64,000 bases of DNA from a virus. Lineage: Duplodnaviria; Caudoviricetes. The notes below the pieces were generated by a model. That model was given only the letters and a program-made list of their open reading frames with translations. It was not told the DNA's origin and ran no database searches. Both the position numbers and the translations under genes were made by a program. Location: the IMG/VR virus record IMGVR_UViG_3300033066_001190, positions 32,001-96,000 of that record; one strand, given 5' to 3'. This document shows positions 2,350-59,461 of this stretch, piece after piece (within the stretch, counting starts at the first letter, position 1; each line of letters starts with the position of its first letter).

Positions 2350-2380
2350 TTTGAACACTCGTTATTTTTTGTTATAGTTG
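2350..2380 (+). promoter_or_regulatory. Putative Bacteroidota-type promoter (TTTG-N19-TATAGTTG)
   Basis: TTTG at 2350-2353 and TATAGTTG at 2373-2380; the same architecture recurs at 36219-36249 and 58079-58110. Confidence 0.5.
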
Positions 2381-2404
2381 CATTACAAGCAACAACAATA
2401 CATA

Positions 2405-3547
2405 ATGCAGTCAAATTTACTAAACATTCAACTTCTCACAGAAGCAGAAGTAGGAGAAACATCTAATGTAGAATTAGCTCCTAATTTAGAAACCTCAGAA
2501 GTAAAAAAGGATGATAAAGTTGCAGATCCTGCAACACCAACTACTCCAAAAATTGAACTATTAACGCCAGAAGAAGCAGGTGTTAAATTAGAAAAGGATG
2601 AGGAAGGTAATGAAATTGCAGTTAAAGAAGAACCCAAAGTAACAAAAGAAGATTTGGCTTTAGATTATAAAGCTTTAGCTGAATCCCGAATTAAGAATGG
2701 TGCTTGGGATGAATATGAAAATTGGAATGAATTAAAAGATTCAGTGGAATGGACTGCTGAATTGTTTGAAAAGTTAGAAACAGAACAGTTTCAAAACAAA
2801 GTACAAAAGGGCATTGAAGAAGAAAAATCTCAATTCGGCTCTCAATATGCTCAACTCTTAGAGCATGCAAAAAATGGAGGTAATTTTCAAGAATTACTAC
2901 CTTCTATCCAACAAGAATTAGATATTGAATCCTTAGATGAAACAGATTTAGATTCTGCTGAAGAATTAATCAGAGCAGAATGTGAAGCAAAGGGATGGAG
3001 TGAAAAAAGAACAAAGTCTTATATCACTTCGTTAAAAGATCAAGGAGATGATGAGAATTTCATCGAAACTGCTAAAGAAGCTAAAGCAAGCTTAAAAAGT
3101 ATTGTTTTAGAAGAAAGACAGGAACTCATCAAACAAAAAGAAGAAGAAGCTAGAGTCACTAAAGCATATTGGGAAACTTTCAATAAAAAAGTAAGAGAAA
3201 CTATTTTTAAAGATGAAGAGCTTTCCCCAAAAGAACAAAAAGATATTGACAAGTTTGTATTTGAATACAAGCATGTAGATCCAGCTTCTGGTAAAAAATA
3301 TTCTGATTTCAATTTGAAATTTGATGAAATCAAGAATGACCCAGCTAAATATGCAAAGCTCATCAAGTTGGTAAAAAACTTTGATGAAGTAGTGAAAAAA
3401 GACACTGCTAAAAAAGAAGCAGTTAAAGAAATCTCTTTCCTTTTGAGAGGAGCATCTCAATCCACAGGTAAAAAGACATCAGAATATCCTGAATTACAAC
3501 CAGATAAAAAAGTAAAAGGGTATAATCCTTTTAAAATCAAACCTTAA
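2405..3547 (+). CDS. Acidic scaffolding-like protein upstream of MCP
   Basis: Very acidic, helical/coiled coil, lies between portal and MCP. ATG 2405 is preferred over TTG 2378 because of its A/C-rich leader and because the promoter overlaps 2378. Confidence 0.6.
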   Translation: MQSNLLNIQLLTEAEVGETSNVELAPNLETSEVKKDDKVADPATPTTPKIELLTPEEAGVKLEKDEEGNEIAVKEEPKVTKEDLALDYKALAESRIKNGAWDEYENWNELKDSVEWTAELFEKLETEQFQNKVQKGIEEEKSQFGSQYAQLLEHAKNGGNFQELLPSIQQELDIESLDETDLDSAEELIRAECEAKGWSEKRTKSYITSLKDQGDDENFIETAKEAKASLKSIVLEERQELIKQKEEEARVTKAYWETFNKKVRETIFKDEELSPKEQKDIDKFVFEYKHVDPASGKKYSDFNLKFDEIKNDPAKYAKLIKLVKNFDEVVKKDTAKKEAVKEISFLLRGASQSTGKKTSEYPELQPDKKVKGYNPFKIKP

Positions 3548-3567: not shown

Positions 3568-5229
3568 ATGGCAACTCCTACTTTACAGAATTTTGGAAAT
3601 AACCTCGTAGTTAAGAAAACTGATTACCGCATGGCGGGTACATTTACCGATGAAAACAAGTTGGTAAATCTATTTGGTTATGACAACGTTAAAGGTGATA
3701 ACTACATGGGGATTTTCTCCGTATTCAACCAATGGTCTACAGTAAATGTTCCTCTCTTAAAAAGGAGCATCATGGAAAAAAACATTATCTACACAAATGG
3801 TAATGTTGGTTCTTTAACTTTCGATATGCCCTATCGTTTAGAAGGTCTAACTGTTAAAGTAGATTTGACTGACGACATCCAATACCCAGGTATTGATGGT
3901 AGCATCTTTGAAGTGGTTATTGGAGATGGTGGATTAGATTCTGTATTACAAGTAGGTGATCGTATCACTGCTGATTACTACGATGGTCAAAACTTAATCA
4001 TTCGTGAAGTAGTTGGTATTTTTGGACAAGGGTTTAAATACAAGGTTCAGTTGGTTACAAATGACAAAACTGAATACTTTAATAAATCTCAACTAGCTCC
4101 AGGAACTCAATTCTTCAAACTTGGTCACACAGCAGGTGAATTTTCTCAAGATGGTTCAGGTATTTCTCAAGGTTTTGGTATGATGAGGTTACAACATCGT
4201 TTAGGTGGTCGCAGAATGTTGGAATATACATTAACTGGCGATGCTCAACGTTTGGAACTAAGTGGTTCTACTAAAATTGGTGGTTTTGACTTTGATCTTT
4301 CCAACTTGAACAAGTATGGTGATTTGAGTGATGCAATGAATGGTGGTTACTTGGTATTGGGAGAAAATGACGGAAAAGGAAATATTAAAAAAGGTACATT
4401 ACAATGGGTTAGTTTCATTGAAGTGATGTTGCATAATGAACTTGCTCGTTTGGAAGAACTTGATTTGATGTTCTCTCAAGGTGGTACTGTAACAGGCGCA
4501 AGGAATAAAACAGAAGTTGTTTCCGAAGGTTTGTATCAACAAATGAAACGTGGTAACTGGAGACATTTCTCTAAATACACTCGTAATGCAGTGGTAGATA
4601 CTTTCCAACAAGCATTTAGAAATCGTCCTGATATTCCAGATTACAAACGTTACTTCAAACTTGAAGGTGGTCGTGGTGCTGTAAATGAATTCCAAAAAAT
4701 CTTTAACCAAGAATTAAACACCACTGCAAACCAATTTGGAGGTATTATTAATGCTGATCAATTGGGTGTAATCAAAGGTGATGCAATGAATCTTGAGGTA
4801 GGATACCGTATGAATAAAGTGTTTATTTCAGGTGTGGGTTGGGTAGAAATTGAACATAACCCAGCATTTGATGCAACACAATCTCGTGTAATGGATCAAC
4901 CAATGATTGGAGGTTTACCTAAACGTTCTTACACTTCTTGTATTTTTGATTTGACTGACTCTAACAGCACTAATGCTGCTCAAGTAACAGGAGATGTAGA
5001 ATTTGCAAAAGGTATGGATACAGGTGCAAACATCTACTTAGTGAAAAATAAGAAAATGCCAGGTGTAAAAATCACTCACATTAATGGTCGTACTTCTCCA
5101 TATCCTGTAATGGCAGGTGGAGGTCAAGTAGCTTCTACAAGGTTTGATGCGTATACTCAATTGTTAGAAAATCAATCTAACATTTTCTTGAAAGATCCTA
5201 CTCGCTCAATCTTGCTTGAGTTGAAATAA
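3568..5229 (+). CDS. Major capsid protein (crAss-like HK97 fold)
   Basis: 553 aa; biased high-expression codons (CGT, GGT); EGLYQQM and EHNPAFD motifs; position after the scaffold. Confidence 0.8.
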   Translation: MATPTLQNFGNNLVVKKTDYRMAGTFTDENKLVNLFGYDNVKGDNYMGIFSVFNQWSTVNVPLLKRSIMEKNIIYTNGNVGSLTFDMPYRLEGLTVKVDLTDDIQYPGIDGSIFEVVIGDGGLDSVLQVGDRITADYYDGQNLIIREVVGIFGQGFKYKVQLVTNDKTEYFNKSQLAPGTQFFKLGHTAGEFSQDGSGISQGFGMMRLQHRLGGRRMLEYTLTGDAQRLELSGSTKIGGFDFDLSNLNKYGDLSDAMNGGYLVLGENDGKGNIKKGTLQWVSFIEVMLHNELARLEELDLMFSQGGTVTGARNKTEVVSEGLYQQMKRGNWRHFSKYTRNAVVDTFQQAFRNRPDIPDYKRYFKLEGGRGAVNEFQKIFNQELNTTANQFGGIINADQLGVIKGDAMNLEVGYRMNKVFISGVGWVEIEHNPAFDATQSRVMDQPMIGGLPKRSYTSCIFDLTDSNSTNAAQVTGDVEFAKGMDTGANIYLVKNKKMPGVKITHINGRTSPYPVMAGGGQVASTRFDAYTQLLENQSNIFLKDPTRSILLELK

Positions 5230-5268
5230 GTAAGAAAACAAAAGTAAAACAAAGCAACAAACAACAAT

Positions 5269-6243
5269 ATGGTATTAGATTTAACAAAAACGTACAAAGT
5301 AGAACCTAAGATTTCTCTAGGTGATGCTCAAGGATTAGATAAATTTGATTTATCTCGACACGTAGGAACTCTTAAACAAATCAGTGTACATTACGACACC
5401 TTAACAGGTAAGTTTAAAACTGGTTTAGATGAAAATGCTCCTGAAGTATTAGCACTACCTAAAGAAGAAAGGGAACAAAAGATTGATTGGATTAAAGCTA
5501 CTCGATCTTCACTTGAACAAAAAATTGGTAGACCTGGTATTTTAGATCCTACTAACGAAGATTTTTGGTCTGTGTGGTCAGTAAATTTAGAAATTGGTCA
5601 AGATAAACATGTTAAAGTTTTTGGACAGCACCCCTACTTTATTCCAGAAACACATTGGTCACATGCTTTAGCTCTTATTACTCTACAAGCAAATGATGCT
5701 TTACCAATGAGTAAGAAAGAAGCAAATAACCCAAAATATAAAGATGCTCAATTCTATATTACTACTCCAGAAGAGGAAGTAACAATGAGCAAAGAAAAGG
5801 TTAGGGAAAATCGTGCAAGGAACACAGAAATGTCTAAATTGTTTGATGATACTAATCCTCTATATGAAAGGGCTTTGCGAATTGCATACTTACTAAATGT
5901 TCAAAAAGAACCTGTAGGCTTAGAGAAGCTGGAAGAAGTTTTAGAAATGTTCTCTTCTCAGAAAGAATATATTAAACGATTCTTAGAGCTTTGTAAAATG
6001 GAAGATCAAGAATTAGAACTTCGTACCACTCTTAAAAAAGCTATCGAACTTGATGTTATCAGTTTTAATGCTGCTGATAAAGTTTATTACCGAGGAGGTT
6101 TTAACATGAGGGGAACTGAAGAAGCTGTAGTAAACATGTTTAAAGTTAATTTAGCTGATCCAGTGATTGCAAGGGAATATGTCGAAATTAAAGATGCTGT
6201 AAATAAACGGGAATCTAAGAAAAAGAAGAAAACCATTGCGTAA
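5269..6243 (+). CDS. Conserved crAss-like protein downstream of MCP (gene-75-like)
   Basis: KTGLDE, LDPTNEDFW and LKKAIELDVI motifs; synteny. Confidence 0.55.
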   Translation: MVLDLTKTYKVEPKISLGDAQGLDKFDLSRHVGTLKQISVHYDTLTGKFKTGLDENAPEVLALPKEEREQKIDWIKATRSSLEQKIGRPGILDPTNEDFWSVWSVNLEIGQDKHVKVFGQHPYFIPETHWSHALALITLQANDALPMSKKEANNPKYKDAQFYITTPEEEVTMSKEKVRENRARNTEMSKLFDDTNPLYERALRIAYLLNVQKEPVGLEKLEEVLEMFSSQKEYIKRFLELCKMEDQELELRTTLKKAIELDVISFNAADKVYYRGGFNMRGTEEAVVNMFKVNLADPVIAREYVEIKDAVNKRESKKKKKTIA

Positions 6244-8920: not shown

Positions 8921-8958
8921 AAAGTGGGAGGGATTCAAAACTCCCTTCCACTTTTTTT
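8921..8958 (+). terminator. Rho-independent terminator
   Basis: AAAGTGGGAGGGA-loop-TCCCTTCCACTTT followed by a T-run. Confidence 0.85.
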
Positions 8959-11656: not shown

Positions 11657-12636
11657 TGAGTTGCCCAGAAACCCCAGATAATTGCGGATGCTTATATCCT
11701 TCTAATACAAATTGTGTTGTACTAAAAGGTATTAATACAAACTGCCTATCGTTGGAAAATGGTACACCCCTATCTGATGCACTTAATACTATATTGAGTT
11801 CTGTTTGTGATTCAGTTCCACCTTCAGGGGTAAATCTAGTAGAATTGAGTCAAGGTAATGGAATTGTTATTACAGAAAATGTTGTAGGTGACACTAGAAT
11901 TTATACAATTGGTGTTAGTTCCTCTCTGATTAATCAGATAAATAACAATAGTTCTAAAATAACTACCCTTCAAGGATGTGTGCAGAATTCAGTTTTAAAC
12001 ATTACTTCTGATACATTAACTGTTACACAAACAGCAGCTACAGCATGTGGAAGAACTTTAAATCTTGAAATTGCTGTACCAACAGGAATTAGCTTGGATG
12101 GAATTATCGAGAATGATTTAACTAAACATGGGGCAAATGGTTCTAGTTTAAACCAAGTTCTTAAAAATTTTAGTTATGATTTATCATCAGCAAAATCTGG
12201 AGATCAAGTAAAGTTACAAATAGTTGGTCAAGTAGGTCGCCCTGAAGGAGGTTTACCAGATAACATCACCATAAATCTTTATGACAAAACAGGAAGTTCT
12301 ATTGTTTTTACATTTGAAGATAATTTGTTTATAAGTAGCTCACCTGCACAAAAGTATGGATTTAATGTAGAAATCATTATAGATTTAGAAACAGATATAA
12401 CAAATGGTGAAGCCGATGTTGTTATAAATGCAATATGGAATAGAAATGCTGAATCTAATGGAACTGAAGATGCTTCAGGTAATATACCTCAAGTTCGTTC
12501 AATATTCAATAAATCTGTAAGTAATTTAGGATTTACAAACTTTGTAACAAAGGTTTTAACAAGCAATTATTCAACTTTGGGTTCAAGCTACACTTTCTTA
12601 AAGAAATTTACAGCAGAGGTTCGTAAAAAAATATAA
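11656..12636 (+). CDS. Fibre/spike protein
   Basis: Same Cys-rich N-terminal module (NCV...CL...TPLSDALN.I); GNGIVIT repeat. Confidence 0.5.
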   Translation: MSCPETPDNCGCLYPSNTNCVVLKGINTNCLSLENGTPLSDALNTILSSVCDSVPPSGVNLVELSQGNGIVITENVVGDTRIYTIGVSSSLINQINNNSSKITTLQGCVQNSVLNITSDTLTVTQTAATACGRTLNLEIAVPTGISLDGIIENDLTKHGANGSSLNQVLKNFSYDLSSAKSGDQVKLQIVGQVGRPEGGLPDNITINLYDKTGSSIVFTFEDNLFISSSPAQKYGFNVEIIIDLETDITNGEADVVINAIWNRNAESNGTEDASGNIPQVRSIFNKSVSNLGFTNFVTKVLTSNYSTLGSSYTFLKKFTAEVRKKI

Positions 12637-13552: not shown

Positions 13553-13598
13553 AATAAACGTTGCTGTTCTTTTTGTTGCTTTAAAGAAGCATGTTTTT

Positions 13599-13624
13599 AG
13601 GGAGGGGAAACCCTCTCTTTTTTT
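13599..13624 (+). terminator. Rho-independent terminator (GAAA loop)
   Basis: AGGGAGGG-GAAA-CCCTCTCT followed by T7. Confidence 0.85.
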
Positions 13625-13646: not shown

Positions 13647-15119
13647 ATGACAAATTACGAAATCGAACAAAGGATTAGACAAATAGAGAGATCTCTACAA
13701 TGTAAACAATCCTGTAGTTCTTCTGGAAGATTTGCAGCTAGGTCTATAGATTATAGCACATTACTTAAACAATATCAAGAAGCTAAACTTAGTCCTGGGT
13801 GGTATTTAATAGAAGACTATCAAACCATTTGCAAAGTACAATTTACAGATAGTAGTCATGATGGATCAGGAGGTGATGAAATATTAAATACTGAAATAGG
13901 TAATTGGACACCTCTTGTAGAACCTCTTTATATCAGAGCTATTACGGAAGACACATTTGATCCCAATGTAGTAAGTGCATTATACCCAAGTCATAGTATT
14001 TTATATGATATTGATAATAGCATTGCCGAATATTATGAATATGACGGAATTAATCATAAAGGAGTTATTTATCACAGGTTGAGTCCAAAAGGGCAACACA
14101 GACAATATGATTTTATGTCTGTTGTCTTTCGTAGATGGGTAGATTCACTAGGAAGGTATGTAGAAGTAAAACCTACAGTGGATGTAAATGACTATCAGGA
14201 TTATTTGTGTAATTTTGTAGGAGCAGAAATAACTGTAGAACAATGTTTCAGCTCTTCTGCCCAATCTGAATTCAATACACAATATGGATTAGACAATACG
14301 GTGATTCAAGCCAAGGGTCTTGTTGTTTTTAATTTGGAAATTGCAGCCAATGCCACTACAGGAACTTATTCATTTTCTGGTTATTTTTCAGACCAACTTA
14401 GATTACTTGTTCAATATAATCCTACAGATTTTACATGTTATGTACCTGGAGTTGCTACAGTTTCTTCAATTGATGTAGTTAATAAAACCATAACTTTTGC
14501 TACAGCCCCCACTACAAGTGATTACAACAGTTATTGTGTAATAAGGGGTACTGATGCAGCCAATGGTTCTACAATTCAATATGCTTACGGTAATACGTTT
14601 GGAGGAAGTTTTAATGAAATACACAGTGAGTTTATACATAATACAATAGTGTATGGAGAAACTGGAGCTGTACATGCTGTAAGAGTTGGGGGAATAAGGG
14701 TGCAAAGTTTGGCTAGATTAATTGGAGCAGGAAGAGTAAGTAATTCTTTTTTTGGTAACCCTTTATGTACAGCAGGTACAGTGGCTAATCTATCGGCTTT
14801 TGTTTTTCTTGATAATTTCTTTTTGGGAGATGGTGATTTTACAGATAATATATTTCAAAAAGCAGCAAACTTAACAGTAGATGACAATAATTCAATAACT
14901 CATTCCACATGGCATACTTTAGAAACTATATTGTTTAATGGTAATGTTGCAAGTCACGAATTTAATAACAGTGTTGCCAATAAAACAATAGCCAATGTAG
15001 CAGATTTAAGCGATCCAACAAAAGAAACAAGTTCATTCATTGATTTGAATGATGGAAAACATTATTTGGTGGAATTTGTCGGAGGTGTATTATCTCAAGG
15101 AACTGTAATAACTAATTAA
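13647..15119 (+). CDS. Putative tail spike/receptor-binding protein (beta-helix-like C-terminus)
   Basis: LSPGWYLIEDYQT and YDF...FRRW motifs; N/F/G-rich C-terminus (GNTFG, NSFFG, NFFLG). Confidence 0.5.
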   Translation: MTNYEIEQRIRQIERSLQCKQSCSSSGRFAARSIDYSTLLKQYQEAKLSPGWYLIEDYQTICKVQFTDSSHDGSGGDEILNTEIGNWTPLVEPLYIRAITEDTFDPNVVSALYPSHSILYDIDNSIAEYYEYDGINHKGVIYHRLSPKGQHRQYDFMSVVFRRWVDSLGRYVEVKPTVDVNDYQDYLCNFVGAEITVEQCFSSSAQSEFNTQYGLDNTVIQAKGLVVFNLEIAANATTGTYSFSGYFSDQLRLLVQYNPTDFTCYVPGVATVSSIDVVNKTITFATAPTTSDYNSYCVIRGTDAANGSTIQYAYGNTFGGSFNEIHSEFIHNTIVYGETGAVHAVRVGGIRVQSLARLIGAGRVSNSFFGNPLCTAGTVANLSAFVFLDNFFLGDGDFTDNIFQKAANLTVDDNNSITHSTWHTLETILFNGNVASHEFNNSVANKTIANVADLSDPTKETSSFIDLNDGKHYLVEFVGGVLSQGTVITN

Positions 15120-15130
15120 ACCTATACGTT

Positions 15131-15397
15131 ATGGCAGAAAGAATATTCAATTGGTTTGATTTAATTTTAAACTATTTTACAGAACATTTATCCCAAGATC
15201 AGGTGGAAAAAAGCATATCTTTCATCACAGGCGATTTAGCAGTTATGGCATTTTTATGGATACACTTAGATATAAGTGATTTTTTAGTCAAAATATGTGC
15301 TACTATTATATTAGGTATAGTGGGTGGAGCTGCGGGTTTATGTGGTAAGGATTTGTATAATTGGGTAAAAACAAAAGCTAAAAAGAAATGGCATTGA
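15131..15397 (+). CDS. Holin-like membrane protein
   Basis: Two hydrophobic segments and a basic C-terminus; upstream of the endolysin. Confidence 0.55.
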   Translation: MAERIFNWFDLILNYFTEHLSQDQVEKSISFITGDLAVMAFLWIHLDISDFLVKICATIILGIVGGAAGLCGKDLYNWVKTKAKKKWH

Positions 15398-15687
15398 ATA
15401 TAGACAGGTTTAACTTCATACAGATGTTTAATAATAGCAAGGGTAAAACATCCTTGATGTTATTTTCATCATTTATTGGAGTTATCACTTCTTCTTTGAT
15501 ATTTACTTTATGCGGAGTTATAGCAGCATTTATGGTGATGTTTGAAGCCAAATCTACAGACATTTCTAATGTTCTAACATCATTAGCTATGCAGTCGGTA
15601 GGCTTATTTACAGTGTCAATAGGAGCATTAACAACTAGAAGATTTACAGACGATAAAACAATTACAAACGAAAATAAAGAAATATGA
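15388..15687 (+). CDS. Second holin/antiholin-like membrane protein
   Basis: Two TM-like segments; overlaps the endolysin start. Confidence 0.5.
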   Translation: MALNIDRFNFIQMFNNSKGKTSLMLFSSFIGVITSSLIFTLCGVIAAFMVMFEAKSTDISNVLTSLAMQSVGLFTVSIGALTTRRFTDDKTITNENKEI

Positions 15688-16208
15688 TTTGGTTATATGC
15701 AGGGCATAATAATGGGGACTGCGGAGCAATTGCAAATGGTGTAAAAGAAGCAGATTTAACAAAGGAGCTTAGAAACCTTGTCAAGCAAAAGCTTGATGCA
15801 AAAGGTGTAAAAGTCACAATTGATGACGATGCTGATAATTTAATTACAACAATCAAAAAAACAAAATCAACAGAAAATGACGTTATTATTGATATACATT
15901 TTAACAGTAGTGCTAGTGTCAGTGCCACAGGAGTAGAAACCTTAATTCCTGATAGGTTCACTGTAAAAGAACAAAATTTAGCTAAAATTATTTCTGCTGG
16001 AATTGCTAAGACATTAGGAATTAAAGATAGAGGTGTAAAAACTGAAATTGATTCCCATAGAGGTAGATTAGGTATTTTACATCCAGCAGGAACAAATGTC
16101 CTTATTGAGGTGTGCTTTATTTCTAATCTTAAAGATTTACAAAGCTACCAAATCAAGAAAAATTTAGTAGCAGATGTTATTGTTAACAGTTTAATTGGAT
16201 TAAAATGA
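15684..16208 (+). CDS. Endolysin, N-acetylmuramoyl-L-alanine amidase (Amidase_3)
   Basis: AGH..D.GA...G.KE, IHFNS and LIEVCFISN catalytic motifs. Confidence 0.92.
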   Translation: MIWLYAGHNNGDCGAIANGVKEADLTKELRNLVKQKLDAKGVKVTIDDDADNLITTIKKTKSTENDVIIDIHFNSSASVSATGVETLIPDRFTVKEQNLAKIISAGIAKTLGIKDRGVKTEIDSHRGRLGILHPAGTNVLIEVCFISNLKDLQSYQIKKNLVADVIVNSLIGLK

Positions 16209-16921
16209 AAAAAGTAATAGAATTCTTTAGTGATAAATTAAATAGAGTGGCAACAATAGGTGTTGTTGTTATTATTGTTTTAATTCTTTTGTTAGCAAAA
16301 TGTGGTTCTAAAAAATCAAACCTCGATTCAGCATTGACATCTTTGGATTCTTTGAAGATGGAATTTACAGTGAAACATGCTAAAGACAGCTCTATCATAG
16401 CTGAACAGGCTTTGCTGATAGTAGATAAGGACAATGCAATGATTAAACAAATAGAAAAGTTTGAAAAATTATCTAAAGTTAAAGCTAAGATTAGCACTAT
16501 CACTGTTACCAAGATTGATTCCGTACTTATCCCTATTGAAAAGCCTATTGTTATAACCATCGTAGATTCCTTAAACGATTCTACTAAATACCTAAAAACT
16601 CCTGCTGATTTTGAGGTTTCTAAGCCTGATTATTCAATCAAAGGAACTATCACTGATTCTTCTGTATTAGTTAAATCTATCCTAATTCCAGATACATCAA
16701 CAATCATCATTGGAGATAAATCTACAGGATTATTCAAAAGACAATCTATTGTAAGAATCAAACATTCAAACCCCTTTATTCAACAATCTTCAATGAACAA
16801 TGTAGTTGTAAAGGATGATAAAATTAATAAACCTGTTGTAGGATTTATTATAGGTGGAGCTACAGGAATTGTAGCTGCAACAATTGTTAATGTATTAGTA
16901 AACTCTTTAAAACCTCGATAA
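16205..16921 (+). CDS. Spanin-like protein
   Basis: N-terminal hydrophobic helix ending LAKC, C-terminal TM helix; directly after the endolysin. Confidence 0.55.
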   Translation: MKKVIEFFSDKLNRVATIGVVVIIVLILLLAKCGSKKSNLDSALTSLDSLKMEFTVKHAKDSSIIAEQALLIVDKDNAMIKQIEKFEKLSKVKAKISTITVTKIDSVLIPIEKPIVITIVDSLNDSTKYLKTPADFEVSKPDYSIKGTITDSSVLVKSILIPDTSTIIIGDKSTGLFKRQSIVRIKHSNPFIQQSSMNNVVVKDDKINKPVVGFIIGGATGIVAATIVNVLVNSLKPR

Positions 16922-17043
16922 TGGCAGCTAAACCCACTAGTAATAACTTTTCACCTAAACCTAAGAAAGGTAAATCTAAAGCTAAAAAGAAATTAAATAA
17001 ATCAGAAAAGAAGAATAAAAAGCCATACAAAGGTCAAGGTTAA
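16921..17043 (+). CDS. 40-aa Lys-rich peptide ending KKPYKGQG (absent from ORF track)
   Basis: MAAKPTSNNFSPKPKKGKSKAKKKLNKSEKKNKKPYKGQG; TAATG coupling; followed by a terminator. Confidence 0.7.
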   Translation: MAAKPTSNNFSPKPKKGKSKAKKKLNKSEKKNKKPYKGQG

Positions 17044-17067
17044 AAAATATTGTTGTTGATTGTTGTT

Positions 17068-17110
17068 AAGCCCTCCTTGTTACAAGTCTGTAATTTTGGA
17101 GGGTTTTTCT
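17068..17110 (+). terminator. Rho-independent terminator closing the lysis operon
   Basis: AAGCCCTCC...TTACA-AGTC-TGTAA...GGAGGGTTT followed by TTCT. Confidence 0.75.
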
Positions 17111-17330
17111 TTATTGACTAAAGAACAGTTTTCCTCTGCAAATCATTAGGTTTGAAGGTCTCTAGTCTTCTTTTGAGAGATGTTTTGTAGCAGTGATTTT
17201 ATGAAGTCCTTGTTGGAAAACTGTAAAAAGCAGAATGATCTGTTAAGAGCAAGGGTATAAAATGCCTCACTACTATCGGTGACTATTTCAACACCTTTTT
17301 GTAATTAGCTTTCACTAACTCTGCTTCCAG

Positions 17331-17455
17331 TTGGAACATAAATAAAAAACCCCCACTTTTTCAAGTGAGGGCTGTTCCAAAAGCCTCACTAAATGCTGAG
17401 ACCCAAGTAGAGAGGTTAGGAACAATATCTTACAACATTAGTTCTCAGTTAATGG
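17331..17455 (-). ncRNA. Candidate structured leader/small RNA with alternative terminator/antiterminator
   Basis: Minus strand: CUGAGA/UCUCAG stem; AGUGAGGC/GCCCUCACU competes with the CCCUCACU/AGUGGGGG-U6 terminator. Confidence 0.5.
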
Positions 17456-17461
17456 TTGTTA

Positions 17462-17469
17462 CAAAATTA
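17462..17469 (-). promoter_or_regulatory. Bacteroidota -7 promoter element TAATTTTG
   Basis: Reverse complement of CAAAATTA matches TAnnTTTG and sits immediately upstream of the structured RNA. Confidence 0.5.
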
Positions 17470-17561
17470 ATACTTTTATCGAAATTACAAAATAAATTGT
17501 CATTAAATTCATTTATTTTGTTTATCAATTTCTGATACTCAAAAATAAAAACTATATTCAA

Positions 17562-17987
17562 ATGACCAAAACAAAAACTGTTAAAAAAAGTAAAAAGAAG
17601 GTAGATAAAGTTGCTTTGATGTCGTTCTTAAAACTAAAAGCAAGAGAGCTGACCTATTCTAGAACCAAGTGGGAAGTAATAATATATGGATTATTAAAAG
17701 AACAAGGTATATTATTTGAATTTCAAGAGCCTATAATCACTAAAAATGGACATGGGTATATTGCTGATTTCTTAATCAAAGGTACAAACCTTATAATAGA
17801 AATAGATGGTAAGCAATGGCATGGAACTAAAGAGCAACAAAAAAAGGATAACTTGAGATCAAGAAGATTAAGAAAAGACGGTTATGAAATTTTAAGACTT
17901 TGGAATTCTCAAGTGAGTGTTTGTTCGAAACAAGATTTGATTAAAATAATAAAACAGGCTATAGATAATGCTACTAAGGTATTGTAA
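17562..17987 (+). CDS. DUF559/Vsr-like PD-(D/E)XK endonuclease
   Basis: T..E, YIADF, IIEIDG..WH, D..R...L...GYEILR.WN. Confidence 0.85.
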
Positions 17988-46700: not shown

Positions 46701-49700
46701 GTTTTTCAACACAGTTGAGAAAATTGTTGTTTGTCAACTCTTTTAATAATGGAGTACCAATTGATTTTAAAGGTGATAATTGGGAAAGTTTATCTCAATC
46801 TGAAAAAATAAAACAGTCTAACATATATAGACTTGAACAAGAATTTGGGGATACAATAGATAAATTGGTTCAAAATGAGAAAGAAAAGCTATTAAAATCT
46901 CTTAATATAAAAATAGACTCTGAAGGAAATTACGATGTTTCTGAAGAAAAACTATCAGAGTTATTAGAAAAGGAGTTTAAGAAAAGAAATCTACCAAATA
47001 ACGTAATCAAAAGTATACAAACTGTAAATGGTAAATTTAAGTATGCTTTAGACGCATCTTTACAAAGAGAAACAATAGAACAGATAATTCTATCTATTGT
47101 AGATAATAGGTTAAGGAAACAAAAAGGTTTAGGAGAATCCCTCATTCAAGCCTCTTCTATCGGGTATGAAAACAAAACACTTGACAGAGTTAGTAGTTGG
47201 AAATCTATAAATGGTAATGATTTACCTTTTTATCAATATGTAAAAGATGGTAAAACTAAGGCTCAAAAGGTTAAAATAGCTCTACAAGGTGATTTTAAAA
47301 ATCTTTTAAATCTGCCTCAAGTAAAAACTCTTTCTGAAAGAAACGATATAAAACCTATAGAGGCTTTAAATACACTTCTTAAAGACGAAGGTTTTGTAGA
47401 TTCTATAAGAGATTTAATTACTATTACAGGTGTAAGGATTCCTGTACAAGGAACTAACTCTATGGAATTTATGGAAGTTTATGAATTCCTTCCAGAAGAA
47501 GCTGGTTCTGTAATTATTGTTTCTCCTGCTCTTGTAGCTAAATCAGGAGGTGACTTTGACTGGGATAAAATTACATCTTTATATCCTTCTTTTAATGTGA
47601 CAGAATCAGGTATACTGATTTATCCAAATCAATCAGAAAAAGTAAATGAATCTGTATATAGAAATTTAGTAAAAGAATTTGATAAAGAAATTAGCAATGT
47701 TCCTGATTTTTACAATAAATTAATAAAGAGTATTTTTGATATTTCTCCAGAAGATTTACAAGATGAGTTAGTATCAGAAGATATATTTCAAACTAAAACT
47801 GTTCCAAGTTTTAAAACATATAATAGAGTTCAAACTAAGAAAGCTTTGAACAATAGGTTAAATCAAATAATTAGAGAAACCTTAGAAAGACCTGATATGT
47901 TTGAATCTTTGGTTACACCAAACTCTACTTACTTGTTTGAAGATATTGCAGATAAGAGGTTAGAAGCAATTTCTAAAAATAAACCAACTTATTCTGATAT
48001 ACCTAGTGTGACAGAATCACTTAATCAGTTTGAATCAAACACTGTAGGTAAACAATCTTTGGGTATTGGTGCTATATGGAATACATTATTTTCACAAATG
48101 CAAAAAGCAGGAGTGGTTTTAAATAAAACCTATATTACCAACATTGATTCTGCTAAACCGTTAGTAAAACAAACAGTAAACAGACTTCCTCACAACAAAA
48201 CAAAATCAGGAAATATGTCTTTATCTGGGATTTATTCTCAGACTTATAAAGGAACAAAATATCCTATTTCAGAAGTTATATCTCAATTAATGAATGGTTG
48301 GGTGGATGTAGCTAAAAAAGATTGGATTTTCTATATTAATGGTAGAAAAGAAATAGCTCCTACATTATTATATACAGCTACAACAGGTGTTCATAAAGAT
48401 TTGTTAGTAGGCTTTTTTAATCAACCTATTTTGTACGAATACATAAAAAATCTACAAAATTACAAGTCTCAGATAGTAAGGTTAAAAGATGAAAATCTTT
48501 ACAACAATGCTAAAAAGAATGCTATTTATGATACATTGTCTAAATATTTACCAGAATCTATTCTAAATGACTTAACAACTGCTTTTGAAAACGGTTCTCA
48601 AGGTTGGGAATTTTGGAATTACATAAATGTAGAATTGCGAAACTTAGCTGATTCTAATCCAGAAGCATTTGAACCAGAATCATTTATGAAGTTTGCTATT
48701 CCTGTAGATAAAAAATTAGCAATCCCTTCAACAGATCAAGAAAAATTAAATCAGGCTCTTTACTTAGTTCAATTTTTAGAATTACAAGAACAGGGTAATA
48801 TTGTTGAAAAATTGAGAAGGGTTGTTAATCAAGACACTGAAAAACCTGTCAATATTCAATATTCTAAAGAAAGACAGGTTAGAAGAGTTGAGTTAAAGGA
48901 TTATAGATTGATTCCAGAGGAGTATATTGAAAAAATGGCTAACGAATCTGTAATCAAAGGATTTACTCATTCTAAAACAGGTATTGATAAATTTGTTGAA
49001 AAGCTGACAAAAAATGTATTTGAAATAACAAATCATCCAGTTTTTAATAGATTTTTGTATGATGAATTTAATAAACCGACAAAAAATAAATACAAGAATG
49101 AGGAAATTGTTGAATTTGGTAACAGTATACCGTTCTCAATAAAATATAACATTTACGAAGATTGGGTAAAAGCTGTTAAAAACCAGTTTATAGAATACCT
49201 ATATCAAAACTATGTCTATAAGCCAAATACTACACAAAAAGTAGCTAATTATATTTTTGAAAAAATGAAACCTTCTACAGCATTAGCTTTAGAACTAGAA
49301 AATATAAAAACTGCATATCCAGATTTAGTGGAAAATAATCTACTTTTACAATTCTTGATTAGAGATAATTCAAGGGAAAAAGTGGGAGGAAAACCTAAAT
49401 ATGTAAATCTTAAACTTAGAAAAGATAGAATTGATTCATCAACAAGCAATGTATTAACAGAAGCTTTTGAAGATTTATTAAATTCTGATATTTCAGAAAT
49501 ACAACAGTTTTCAAGAAAACTTGCTCATTTTGCATTTATTCAATCAGGTTTACAAAAATCCCCAATTTCTTTTGCAAATATCATTCCTCAAGAACATTAT
49601 GGGGAAGATGTTTCCAACATTATAAAAGCATTTTCTGAATTAATGACAGAAAATCCTTTACAGGCTAAAAGAGAAATACAGAAATTTTATGATGATTATT

Positions 49701-58838: not shown

Positions 58839-58871
58839 AAAAAGGGAGGCTTAAAACCTCCCTTTTCTTTT
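58839..58871. terminator. Bidirectional terminator between convergent operons
   Basis: AAAAAGGGAGG-CTTAAAA-CCTCCCTTTTCTTTT. Confidence 0.9.
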
Positions 58872-59437
58872 TATACCCTTTCTAAAATAAACAATGTGTT
58901 TCTAAACCAATGACAATAATCTTGTATTAATGCTCTAGCTTCATTTGTTTCTTTTTCCATTAACTTAAACCCTCTGTATTCAAATAATGGTAATATTTCA
59001 TCATTATTTAAGCAATTAACATGTCCAAACCCTGCTTGACCTCTAACAGCCCAAGAAGTAATAAGATATTTATCACAATTTAAACATAAATTGTCTAGAT
59101 AAATATTCATATATTTAGCATCTATATGTTCCCCGACTTCTAACGAGAGTATATTACCTTTCTGACCTAGGTTAAAAGGAATAGTTAAATCTTGTTTTAA
59201 AATGGGGTCAAATACCTTGTTTTTAGGAGGATCTCCTTCAAACCCAATTAAATTATTAAATCCTGCATTTTTTAAATCTTTTAGATATGAACCCAAACCT
59301 GCGCCAAAGTCGTAAATAGGAGTGTTACCGCCTCTCTTTAGGAATGTACAAATCCATTCACTTAGTTCTTTGCTATGTACATGATGTAAATGTGCTGTTT
59401 CAGCATTCCAATAACCTGTTTCTGATATTTCTTTCAT
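58871..59437 (-). CDS. Class I SAM-dependent methyltransferase
   Basis: YDFGAGLG motif I, SLEVGEHI, GQ.G.GHVN. Confidence 0.85.
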   Translation of the reverse strand: MKEISETGYWNAETAHLHHVHSKELSEWICTFLKRGGNTPIYDFGAGLGSYLKDLKNAGFNNLIGFEGDPPKNKVFDPILKQDLTIPFNLGQKGNILSLEVGEHIDAKYMNIYLDNLCLNCDKYLITSWAVRGQAGFGHVNCLNNDEILPLFEYRGFKLMEKETNEARALIQDYCHWFRNTLFILERV

Positions 59438-59461
59438 TGTTGTTTTTTTTTTAATTAATAG

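Follow-up and report, generated by a model that had tools for sequence, protein, structure and literature searches.

Between the stop codon of the last lysis gene and the terminator of the lysis module, the phage genome considered here carries a U/G-rich tract (site 2) that is complementary to the leaders of the two genes flanking the major capsid protein (MCP) gene, and in an energy scan of sense-strand windows it ranks first as a partner of these two leaders. We lean, if only slightly, towards reading site 2 as a functional anti-leader located where the lysis-module mRNA ends, at a 3′ terminus protected by the terminator. The window analysed comprises 64,000 nucleotides, bases 32001–96000 of a 106,587-bp IMG/VR virus record. 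An antisense function had been suggested in the first-pass annotation of this DNA; its core, terminator-proximal tracts as partners of the scaffold-like and post-MCP leaders, gains support, whereas the methyltransferase leader that it added as a target, the timing with lysis and the direction of regulation are unsupported.

Judged from its sequence, the phage is a distant crAss relative. In family searches, the protein encoded at 3568–5229 matches the Crassvirus major capsid family, and the gene at 66–1976 encodes the portal. An SD core is present in eight of the 132 leaders, and all leaders of the phage taken together show a peak of A at positions −12/−11; SD-poor leaders with such a peak constitute the translation signature of Bacteroidota, as in Flavobacterium johnsoniae (PMC6847099). 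Leader composition thus points to Bacteroidota-like hosts. Words of the (CAA) type are enriched four- to eight-fold in leaders genome-wide. Late head and lysis genes form a single co-oriented block, hence a temporal switch between them is not obvious. The features that concern site 2 and its candidate targets are as follows.

15131–17043, genes of the lysis module, among them a holin-like ORF
15684–16208, Amidase_3 endolysin gene of the lysis module
Within the lysis module, gene of a 238-aa protein with hydrophobic ends, whose stop overlaps the start of the 40-aa ORF
16921–17043, plus strand, 40-aa lysine-rich ORF, last gene of the lysis module (phrog_17967, E 1.9e-6)
17046–17067, plus strand, U/G-rich tract of 22 nt, a 10-nt tandem duplication with one ATTGTTGTT per copy
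17070–17103, plus strand, two-tier terminator hairpin with outer stem GCCCUCC/GGAGGG and inner stem UUACA/UGUAA
17104–17115, plus strand, terminator U tract TTTTTCTTTATT, directly after the stem
5253–5276, plus strand, initiation region of the post-MCP gene (5269–6243), positions −16 to +7 with the AUG included, the best-supported target
2380–2400, plus strand, leader of the scaffold-like gene (2405–3547), positions −25 to −5, the second candidate target

The peptide encoded at 16921–17043 is extremely lysine-rich and contains no hydrophobic segment; phrog_17967 is a family of unknown function. The TAA stop codon of this ORF (17041–17043) opens the 3′UTR, where ATTGTTGTT is found at 17049–17057 and again at 17059–17067, so that the tandem seed described earlier is indeed present. 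The hairpin starts 2 nt after the tract, and the second seed copy falls in the single-stranded linker of the predicted fold. For 17030–17115, the MFE is −23 kcal/mol (z −4.0), none of 200 shuffles being equally stable, and the hairpin alone contributes −14.9 kcal/mol. A stable G+C-rich stem-loop, a U tract and a position at the end of a co-oriented block, the attributes of an intrinsic terminator, occur here together, and the terminator is of the same GGGAGG/CCTCCC class as those ending the late blocks at 8952, 13618, 22316, and 58868. The transcript of the lysis module is predicted to end with the segment 17044–17115. As in 3′UTR-derived sRNAs, the tract lies between the stop codon and the hairpin (17070) and shares the parental terminator. 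Scanning 16500–17090 for host-type promoters revealed no plus-strand TAnnTTTG box, and therefore a short RNA would need processing. Rfam yielded no match at the gathering score in the window, and the region 16900–17600 gave sub-threshold chance hits only.

The complementarity itself is exact. TATTGTTGTTG (17048–17058) is the perfect 11-nt reverse complement of CAACAACAATA (2390–2400), and ATATTGTTGTT (17047–17057) is that of AACAACAATAT (5260–5270), likewise over 11 nt, as the first-pass annotation had stated; it was also right that the latter match overlaps the start codon at 5269 (the first two letters of the ATG fall within 5260–5270), and that site 1, described below, and site 2 match neighboring stretches of the same leader, 5251–5261 and 5260–5270, respectively. 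When the tract was scanned against all 132 leaders, as had been recommended, its two best energy partners were the leaders of the genes starting at 5269 and 2405. Both targets are on the same strand as the tract and 11.8–14.6 kb away from it, unlike the targets of cis-encoded antisense RNAs.

The predicted duplex between 17046–17067 and 5253–5276 comprises 21 bp (three of them G:U) with the energy of −18.5 kcal/mol, and the one between the tract and 2380–2400, 18 bp with −16.6 kcal/mol. The region 5253–5276 is predicted to be largely unpaired (P unpaired 0.82), and cofolding of the 17030–17112 fragment with the 5269 start region yields a net gain of −17.9 kcal/mol, compared to −4 to −7 kcal/mol for control start regions. 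As a target, the 2405 leader is inferior to the 5269 leader, since it is locally paired in the −80 to +60 fold (P unpaired 0.37) and the net cofold gain is smaller, −5.7 kcal/mol; according to these models, it would remain the weaker one unless its transcript begins downstream of the pairing arm.

A third leader had been listed as a possible target. The sequence AACAACAATG is present on the minus strand at 59444–59435, at the start of the ORF 58871–59437, as reported, and the leader shares 9 nt with the tract; it is outside the top energy partners and was rejected as a target. The methyltransferase label of this ORF found no backing either, as its product has no match to methyltransferases or to any other family.

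The match was evaluated in two ways, against all 132 leaders and against the two leaders marked by relatives of the phage. In the former test, with composition-matched shuffles, at least one leader was matched over 11 nt with the probability of 0.25, and at least two, with the probability of 0.065; with natural T/G-rich windows, the respective values were 0.215 and 0.047. Tracts upstream of other terminators match leaders over 8–10 nt. Compared with any leader, the 11-nt match is unremarkable in this SD-less, A-rich phage and looks like chance. These results agree with the most serious alternative, that is, an ordinary 3′UTR with a terminator, whose TTG-rich repeat is a functionless product of replication slippage, while the leaders that it matches are the most (CAA)n-like ones in a genome with A-rich, G-poor leaders. 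The tract is of low complexity and resembles a microsatellite, and leaders as a whole show an excess of (CAA) words. Both target leaders pair even better with a generic (UUG)8, and almost as well with the reversed tract. The latter was discarded as a negative control, since the motif is nearly symmetric and reversal is invalid for repeat motifs; the reversed tract of a relative, G002, also matches the same leaders, over 12 nt. Some coding regions pair with site 2 as well as the 5269 leader does, and a chance 12-nt complement to this leader exists in the coding sequence at 46723. The initial verdict from the all-leader shuffles had been low-complexity noise; it was revised when relatives fixed the targets, because they define the two target leaders independently.

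Relatives were retrieved by the capsid protein and form five sets.

G002, complete IMG/VR genome of 168,934 bp, MCP 55% identical (G001 is an identical fragment)
L046, L047, L049, and L051, metagenome loci, MCP 58–59% identical
L044, L045, and L050, short contigs, MCP 76–86% identical (L044 is the closest, 86%)
Lbo-JY46, cultured Leptolyngbya phage (PP438436.1), MCP 32% identical
Cellulophaga phage phi4:1, MCP 26% identical

The MCP of L049/L051 had no match among viral contigs. The gene order is conserved among the relatives from the portal gene through the ortholog of the 12638–13552 gene. The post-MCP gene has an A/C-only repeat leader in every relative genome seen, and in most genomes the scaffold-like gene shares the motif of this leader, while the MCP leader lacks it. 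The motif is AAGCAACAA..ACAACAAT in the phage studied here, AAACCAAAAAAC in G002 and L044, AAACCAATAAACC in L045, L049, and L051, and AAACAACAACAAA in Lbo-JY46; in phi4:1, AAAACCA is kept in both leaders. The leaders with the motif are at 2380–2404 and 5239–5268 of the window, L029:8760–8788 and 11715–11740, L051:8795–8818 and 11680–11705, L052:16265–16290, and L053:21800–21827. Differences between lineages in a motif shared by both MCP-flanking leaders suggest concerted change.

The tracts complementary to these leaders are located as follows.

Site 1, TTTGTTGCTTT, 13572–13582, plus strand, in the 3′UTR of the 12638–13552 gene, upstream of the terminator 13601–13624, complementary to 5251–5261
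G002, GTTTTTTGGTTT in the site-1 UTR, 12-nt complement of both leaders, rank 1 of 7,577 windows, shuffle P 0.0017 with one leader matched and 0.00015 with both
L049/L051, GGTTTATTGGTTT in the site-1 UTR, complementary to the post-MCP leader over 13 nt and to the scaffold leader over 11 nt, rank 1 of 4,324 windows, shuffle P 0.0012
Lbo-JY46, TTTGTTGGTTGTTTAT, complementary to the post-MCP leader over 7 and 8 nt with a bulged G in between, second among loci in a scan of 7,231 windows

For the L049/L051 tract, the next best leader reaches 8 nt. G002, the sole complete genome among the relatives, has one anti-leader site and no second one, and a scan of 31 kb of phi4:1 found no terminator-proximal anti-leader. 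Folding models of G002 and L051 place the seed in the apical loop of a hairpin preceding the terminator (L029:20039–20070 and L051:20816–20847), which gives these two elements a predicted two-hairpin, sRNA-like layout. In Lbo-JY46, the seed and the terminator are at L052:33660–33735 (PP438436.1, approximately 91,580–91,650, complementary strand), the tract being 8 nt from the terminator. It is situated in a 410-nt intergenic gap that opens with another terminator and hence looks like a free-standing small RNA gene; AAAGCGTAAT-like motifs upstream of it might be phage promoters.

Thus, complementarity has been kept through sequence change in independent lineages, and RNA–RNA pairing explains this most economically. 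From these comparisons, the support for site 1 and for pairing across the clade is considerably better than that for site 2. Site 2 resembles site 1, the orthologs of the latter in G002 and L049/L051 and the Lbo-JY46 unit in the identity of both target leaders, a pre-terminator placement and duplex energies of −16 to −19 kcal/mol. Site 1, however, belongs to the conserved 3′UTR of the ortholog of the 12638 gene and has changed together with its targets, while site 2 marks the end of the lysis module, which is missing from the relatives found. It is also closer to its hairpin, 2 nt compared to 8–20 nt for the sister elements, and displays the second seed copy in a single-stranded linker rather than in a hairpin loop as in G002 and L051.

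With the two leaders fixed, shuffled versions of site 2 match either of them over at least 11 nt with the probability of 0.0026, and both, with the probability of 0.00016; the corrected p-value, allowing for about 10 terminator UTRs, is approximately 0.003–0.02. Among 12,794 sense-strand windows of 30 nt, site 2 has the best summed duplex energy (−35.6 kcal/mol, z −5.8), and site 1 is ranked sixth. In the whole genome with both strands considered, site 2 is fifth of 35,520 windows, the four better ones being antisense to genes. In scans with eight control pairs of leaders, no terminator-proximal window came out on top, the best one having rank 23 to 229 of 6,397. These ranks, together with the location at the terminator-proximal position where relatives hold a covarying anti-leader, argue against slippage without function. 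Conversely, a single site suffices in G002. Taking all this into account, we treat a functionless repeat as a possibility of some weight, though we do not expect it to be correct.

The tract could also act as DNA, its repeats binding a protein or providing TTG (−33-like) elements for the −7 box TAATTTTG at 17091–17098; we consider this improbable, and transcription of the downstream gap and of the gene of the DUF559 nuclease from a promoter of this kind is just as improbable. The box is a perfect match to the Bacteroidota −7 consensus TAnnTTTG (PMC7366714), and the tract is a 10-bp direct repeat. However, even the nearest TTG stands too far from the box, at 25 nt, and a promoter inside a terminator stem-loop would be awkward, the box being formed by the loop and the 3′ arm of the hairpin; given the frequency of the motif, approximately 1 per kb, it probably occurs here by chance. 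A protein-binding site, in turn, leaves the joint change of the tract and the leaders in relatives unexplained. Finally, a leader of an unrecognized minus-strand gene or an extension of plus-strand coding is hardly credible and was rejected on the basis of the ORF list and stop usage: the tract reads AACAACAATCAACAACAAT on the minus strand, which is leader-like, and an identical 19-mer is a minus-strand leader right before an ATG in an unrelated phage contig (L021), but the ATG downstream of the tract opens only about 15 codons, and the 47-aa ORF starting with TTG (16887–17030) is a mere antisense of the lysine-rich gene; similarly, there is a hydrophobic stretch in frame past the TAA, but the extension would end past the terminator U tract, and recoding is excluded because TAA ends 100 of the 132 genes.

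If site 2 is indeed an anti-leader, the tract would act within the full mRNA or, with higher probability, in the form of a 3′ fragment that the terminator protects. A terminator hairpin shields 3′ ends from 3′ exonucleases, and this is the usual route to 3′UTR-derived sRNAs. The tract would base-pair with the A/C-only, SD-less start region of the post-MCP gene at 5253–5276, including the AUG, and, less certainly, with the scaffold-like leader at 2380–2400. The duplex over positions −16 to +7 would block initiation where ribosomes need an unpaired A-rich start region, and the synthesis of both MCP-flanking proteins would fall relative to that of the capsid protein. In-vivo pairing, action in trans and repression are what we infer from the features above; action in trans is more likely than in cis, because the partners are 11.8–14.6 kb apart with at least two terminators (8952, 13618) between them. 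We tentatively extend this to the crAss-related clade formed by this phage, G002, L049/L051, and Lbo-JY46, where late mRNAs, through their 3′ ends, or a small RNA might pair with the MCP-flanking start regions and tune their output relative to the capsid protein, site 2 coupling lysis transcription to the shutdown of assembly factors; in this general form, the proposal is rather doubtful.

SdhX and CpxQ are 3′UTR-derived base-pairing sRNAs of enterobacteria. Like such RNAs, site 2 has its seed directly upstream of the intrinsic terminator of the parental mRNA, and its predicted targets are initiation regions of other mRNAs. In Bacteroides thetaiotaomicron, 3′UTR-derived sRNAs (BTnc028-type) have been described, and GibS targets start regions via long A/U-rich seeds (PMC7366714); in Bacteroides, sRNAs with such seeds repress start regions (PMC7366714). 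The seed of site 2 is long and A/U-rich as well, as has been proposed for the Hfq-less Bacteroides. Unlike bacterial 3′UTR sRNAs, site 2 belongs to a virulent crAss-related phage, whose own morphogenesis genes are the predicted targets, and the seed is a tandem, microsatellite-like repeat. Hence, site 2 resembles a 3′UTR-derived base-pairing sRNA as a candidate only, membership in this class requiring an RNA species and an effect.

Two types of phage RNA control are also relevant. In phage-encoded cis-antisense RNAs, such as OOP and aQ of lambda and sar of P22 (reviewed in PMC12197685), a phage RNA controls phage genes by base pairing, as is proposed for site 2; these RNAs, however, are transcribed opposite their targets, while site 2 is distant from its targets and on the same strand. 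No element aimed at capsid-module start regions is described in this review of phage-derived sRNAs (PMC12197685). As for cis pairing, site 2 is similar to long-range elements of RNA phages in that a remote same-strand complement would occlude a start region, and such pairing is conceivable in read-through transcripts. In the ssRNA phages MS2 and Qbeta, long-distance RNA pairing gates translation. There, unlike in site 2, the partners are not separated by 11.8–14.6 kb of a dsDNA phage genome with at least two terminators in between.

To our knowledge, little has been established about post-transcriptional control in crAss-like and other Bacteroidota phages, and the same is true of the regulation of SD-independent translation. 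If correct, our reading would provide a simple example of a phage using an RNA to occlude the A-rich start regions of its assembly genes. Covariation across lineages makes the anti-leader idea directly testable, the more so as one carrier, Lbo-JY46, is cultured and Flavobacterium johnsoniae reporters exist. It would also yield a search rule for other phages, namely, the best complement of MCP-flanking leaders located beside terminators.

Little can be derived from homology about the two target proteins, for which no informative sequence match was found in Pfam, PHROG or PDB. The product of 2405–3547 is E/K-rich and is encoded between the portal and MCP genes, and its “scaffold” label, based solely on this position and composition, is provisional. 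For the post-MCP protein (5269–6243), the predicted model, a confident one (pLDDT 81), resembles only uncharacterized proteins of crAss-like phages, S0A085 of phi14:2 and one from the Azobacteroides phage ProJPt-Bp1, with no solved structure matched in the structure search; its gene is a conserved one of the crAss lineage, to which the fold assigns no candidate function. The phi4:1 orthologs of the target proteins, gp065 and gp063, are annotated as hypothetical, and their neighbors are virion proteins verified by MS. This annotation suggests, by inference only, that both target proteins are perhaps assembly factors absent from the mature particle.

The lysis module is absent from the relatives found, and thus site 2 has no ortholog there. 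With the 238-aa, amidase and 490-aa proteins as queries, viral contigs, cultured phages and metagenomes yielded no relative apart from one distant homolog (P0002, 37% identical), encoded on a 2.5-kb contig. In G002, the gene L029:20151, a homolog of the 17968 gene, directly follows the site-1 terminator and is adjacent to L029:19094, the ortholog of the 12638 gene. In the window, these two genes flank the block 13647–17987; besides the lysis genes and site 2, it holds the gene of the 490-aa protein, the 518-nt gap and the DUF559 nuclease gene. As the flanking genes adjoin in G002, the block represents a module inserted here or lost in G002. Site 2 is at its right-hand border, so that its position with respect to the 17968 gene corresponds to that of the single G002 element. 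The closest relative, L044, still has AAACCAAAAAAC, which makes the (CAA)n leader found here a recent one, like the tracts matching it.

The exact 19-mer of site 2 has 26 hits in viral contigs, all of them unrelated and due to chance. In the 518-nt gap, a near-consensus Bacteroidota promoter, TTTG-N18-TAATTTTG, is present on the minus strand within 17340–17495, its −7 box at 17469–17462 facing a strong minus-strand terminator (17373–17348 followed by a T run); a non-coding RNA of about 110 nt, with no match in Rfam, is predicted between them. The adjacent gene at 17562–17987 encodes a free-standing DUF559/Vsr-like nuclease (PF04480, E 1.8e-14); its end and the beginning of the 17968 gene overlap, and it is probably a mobile nuclease gene.
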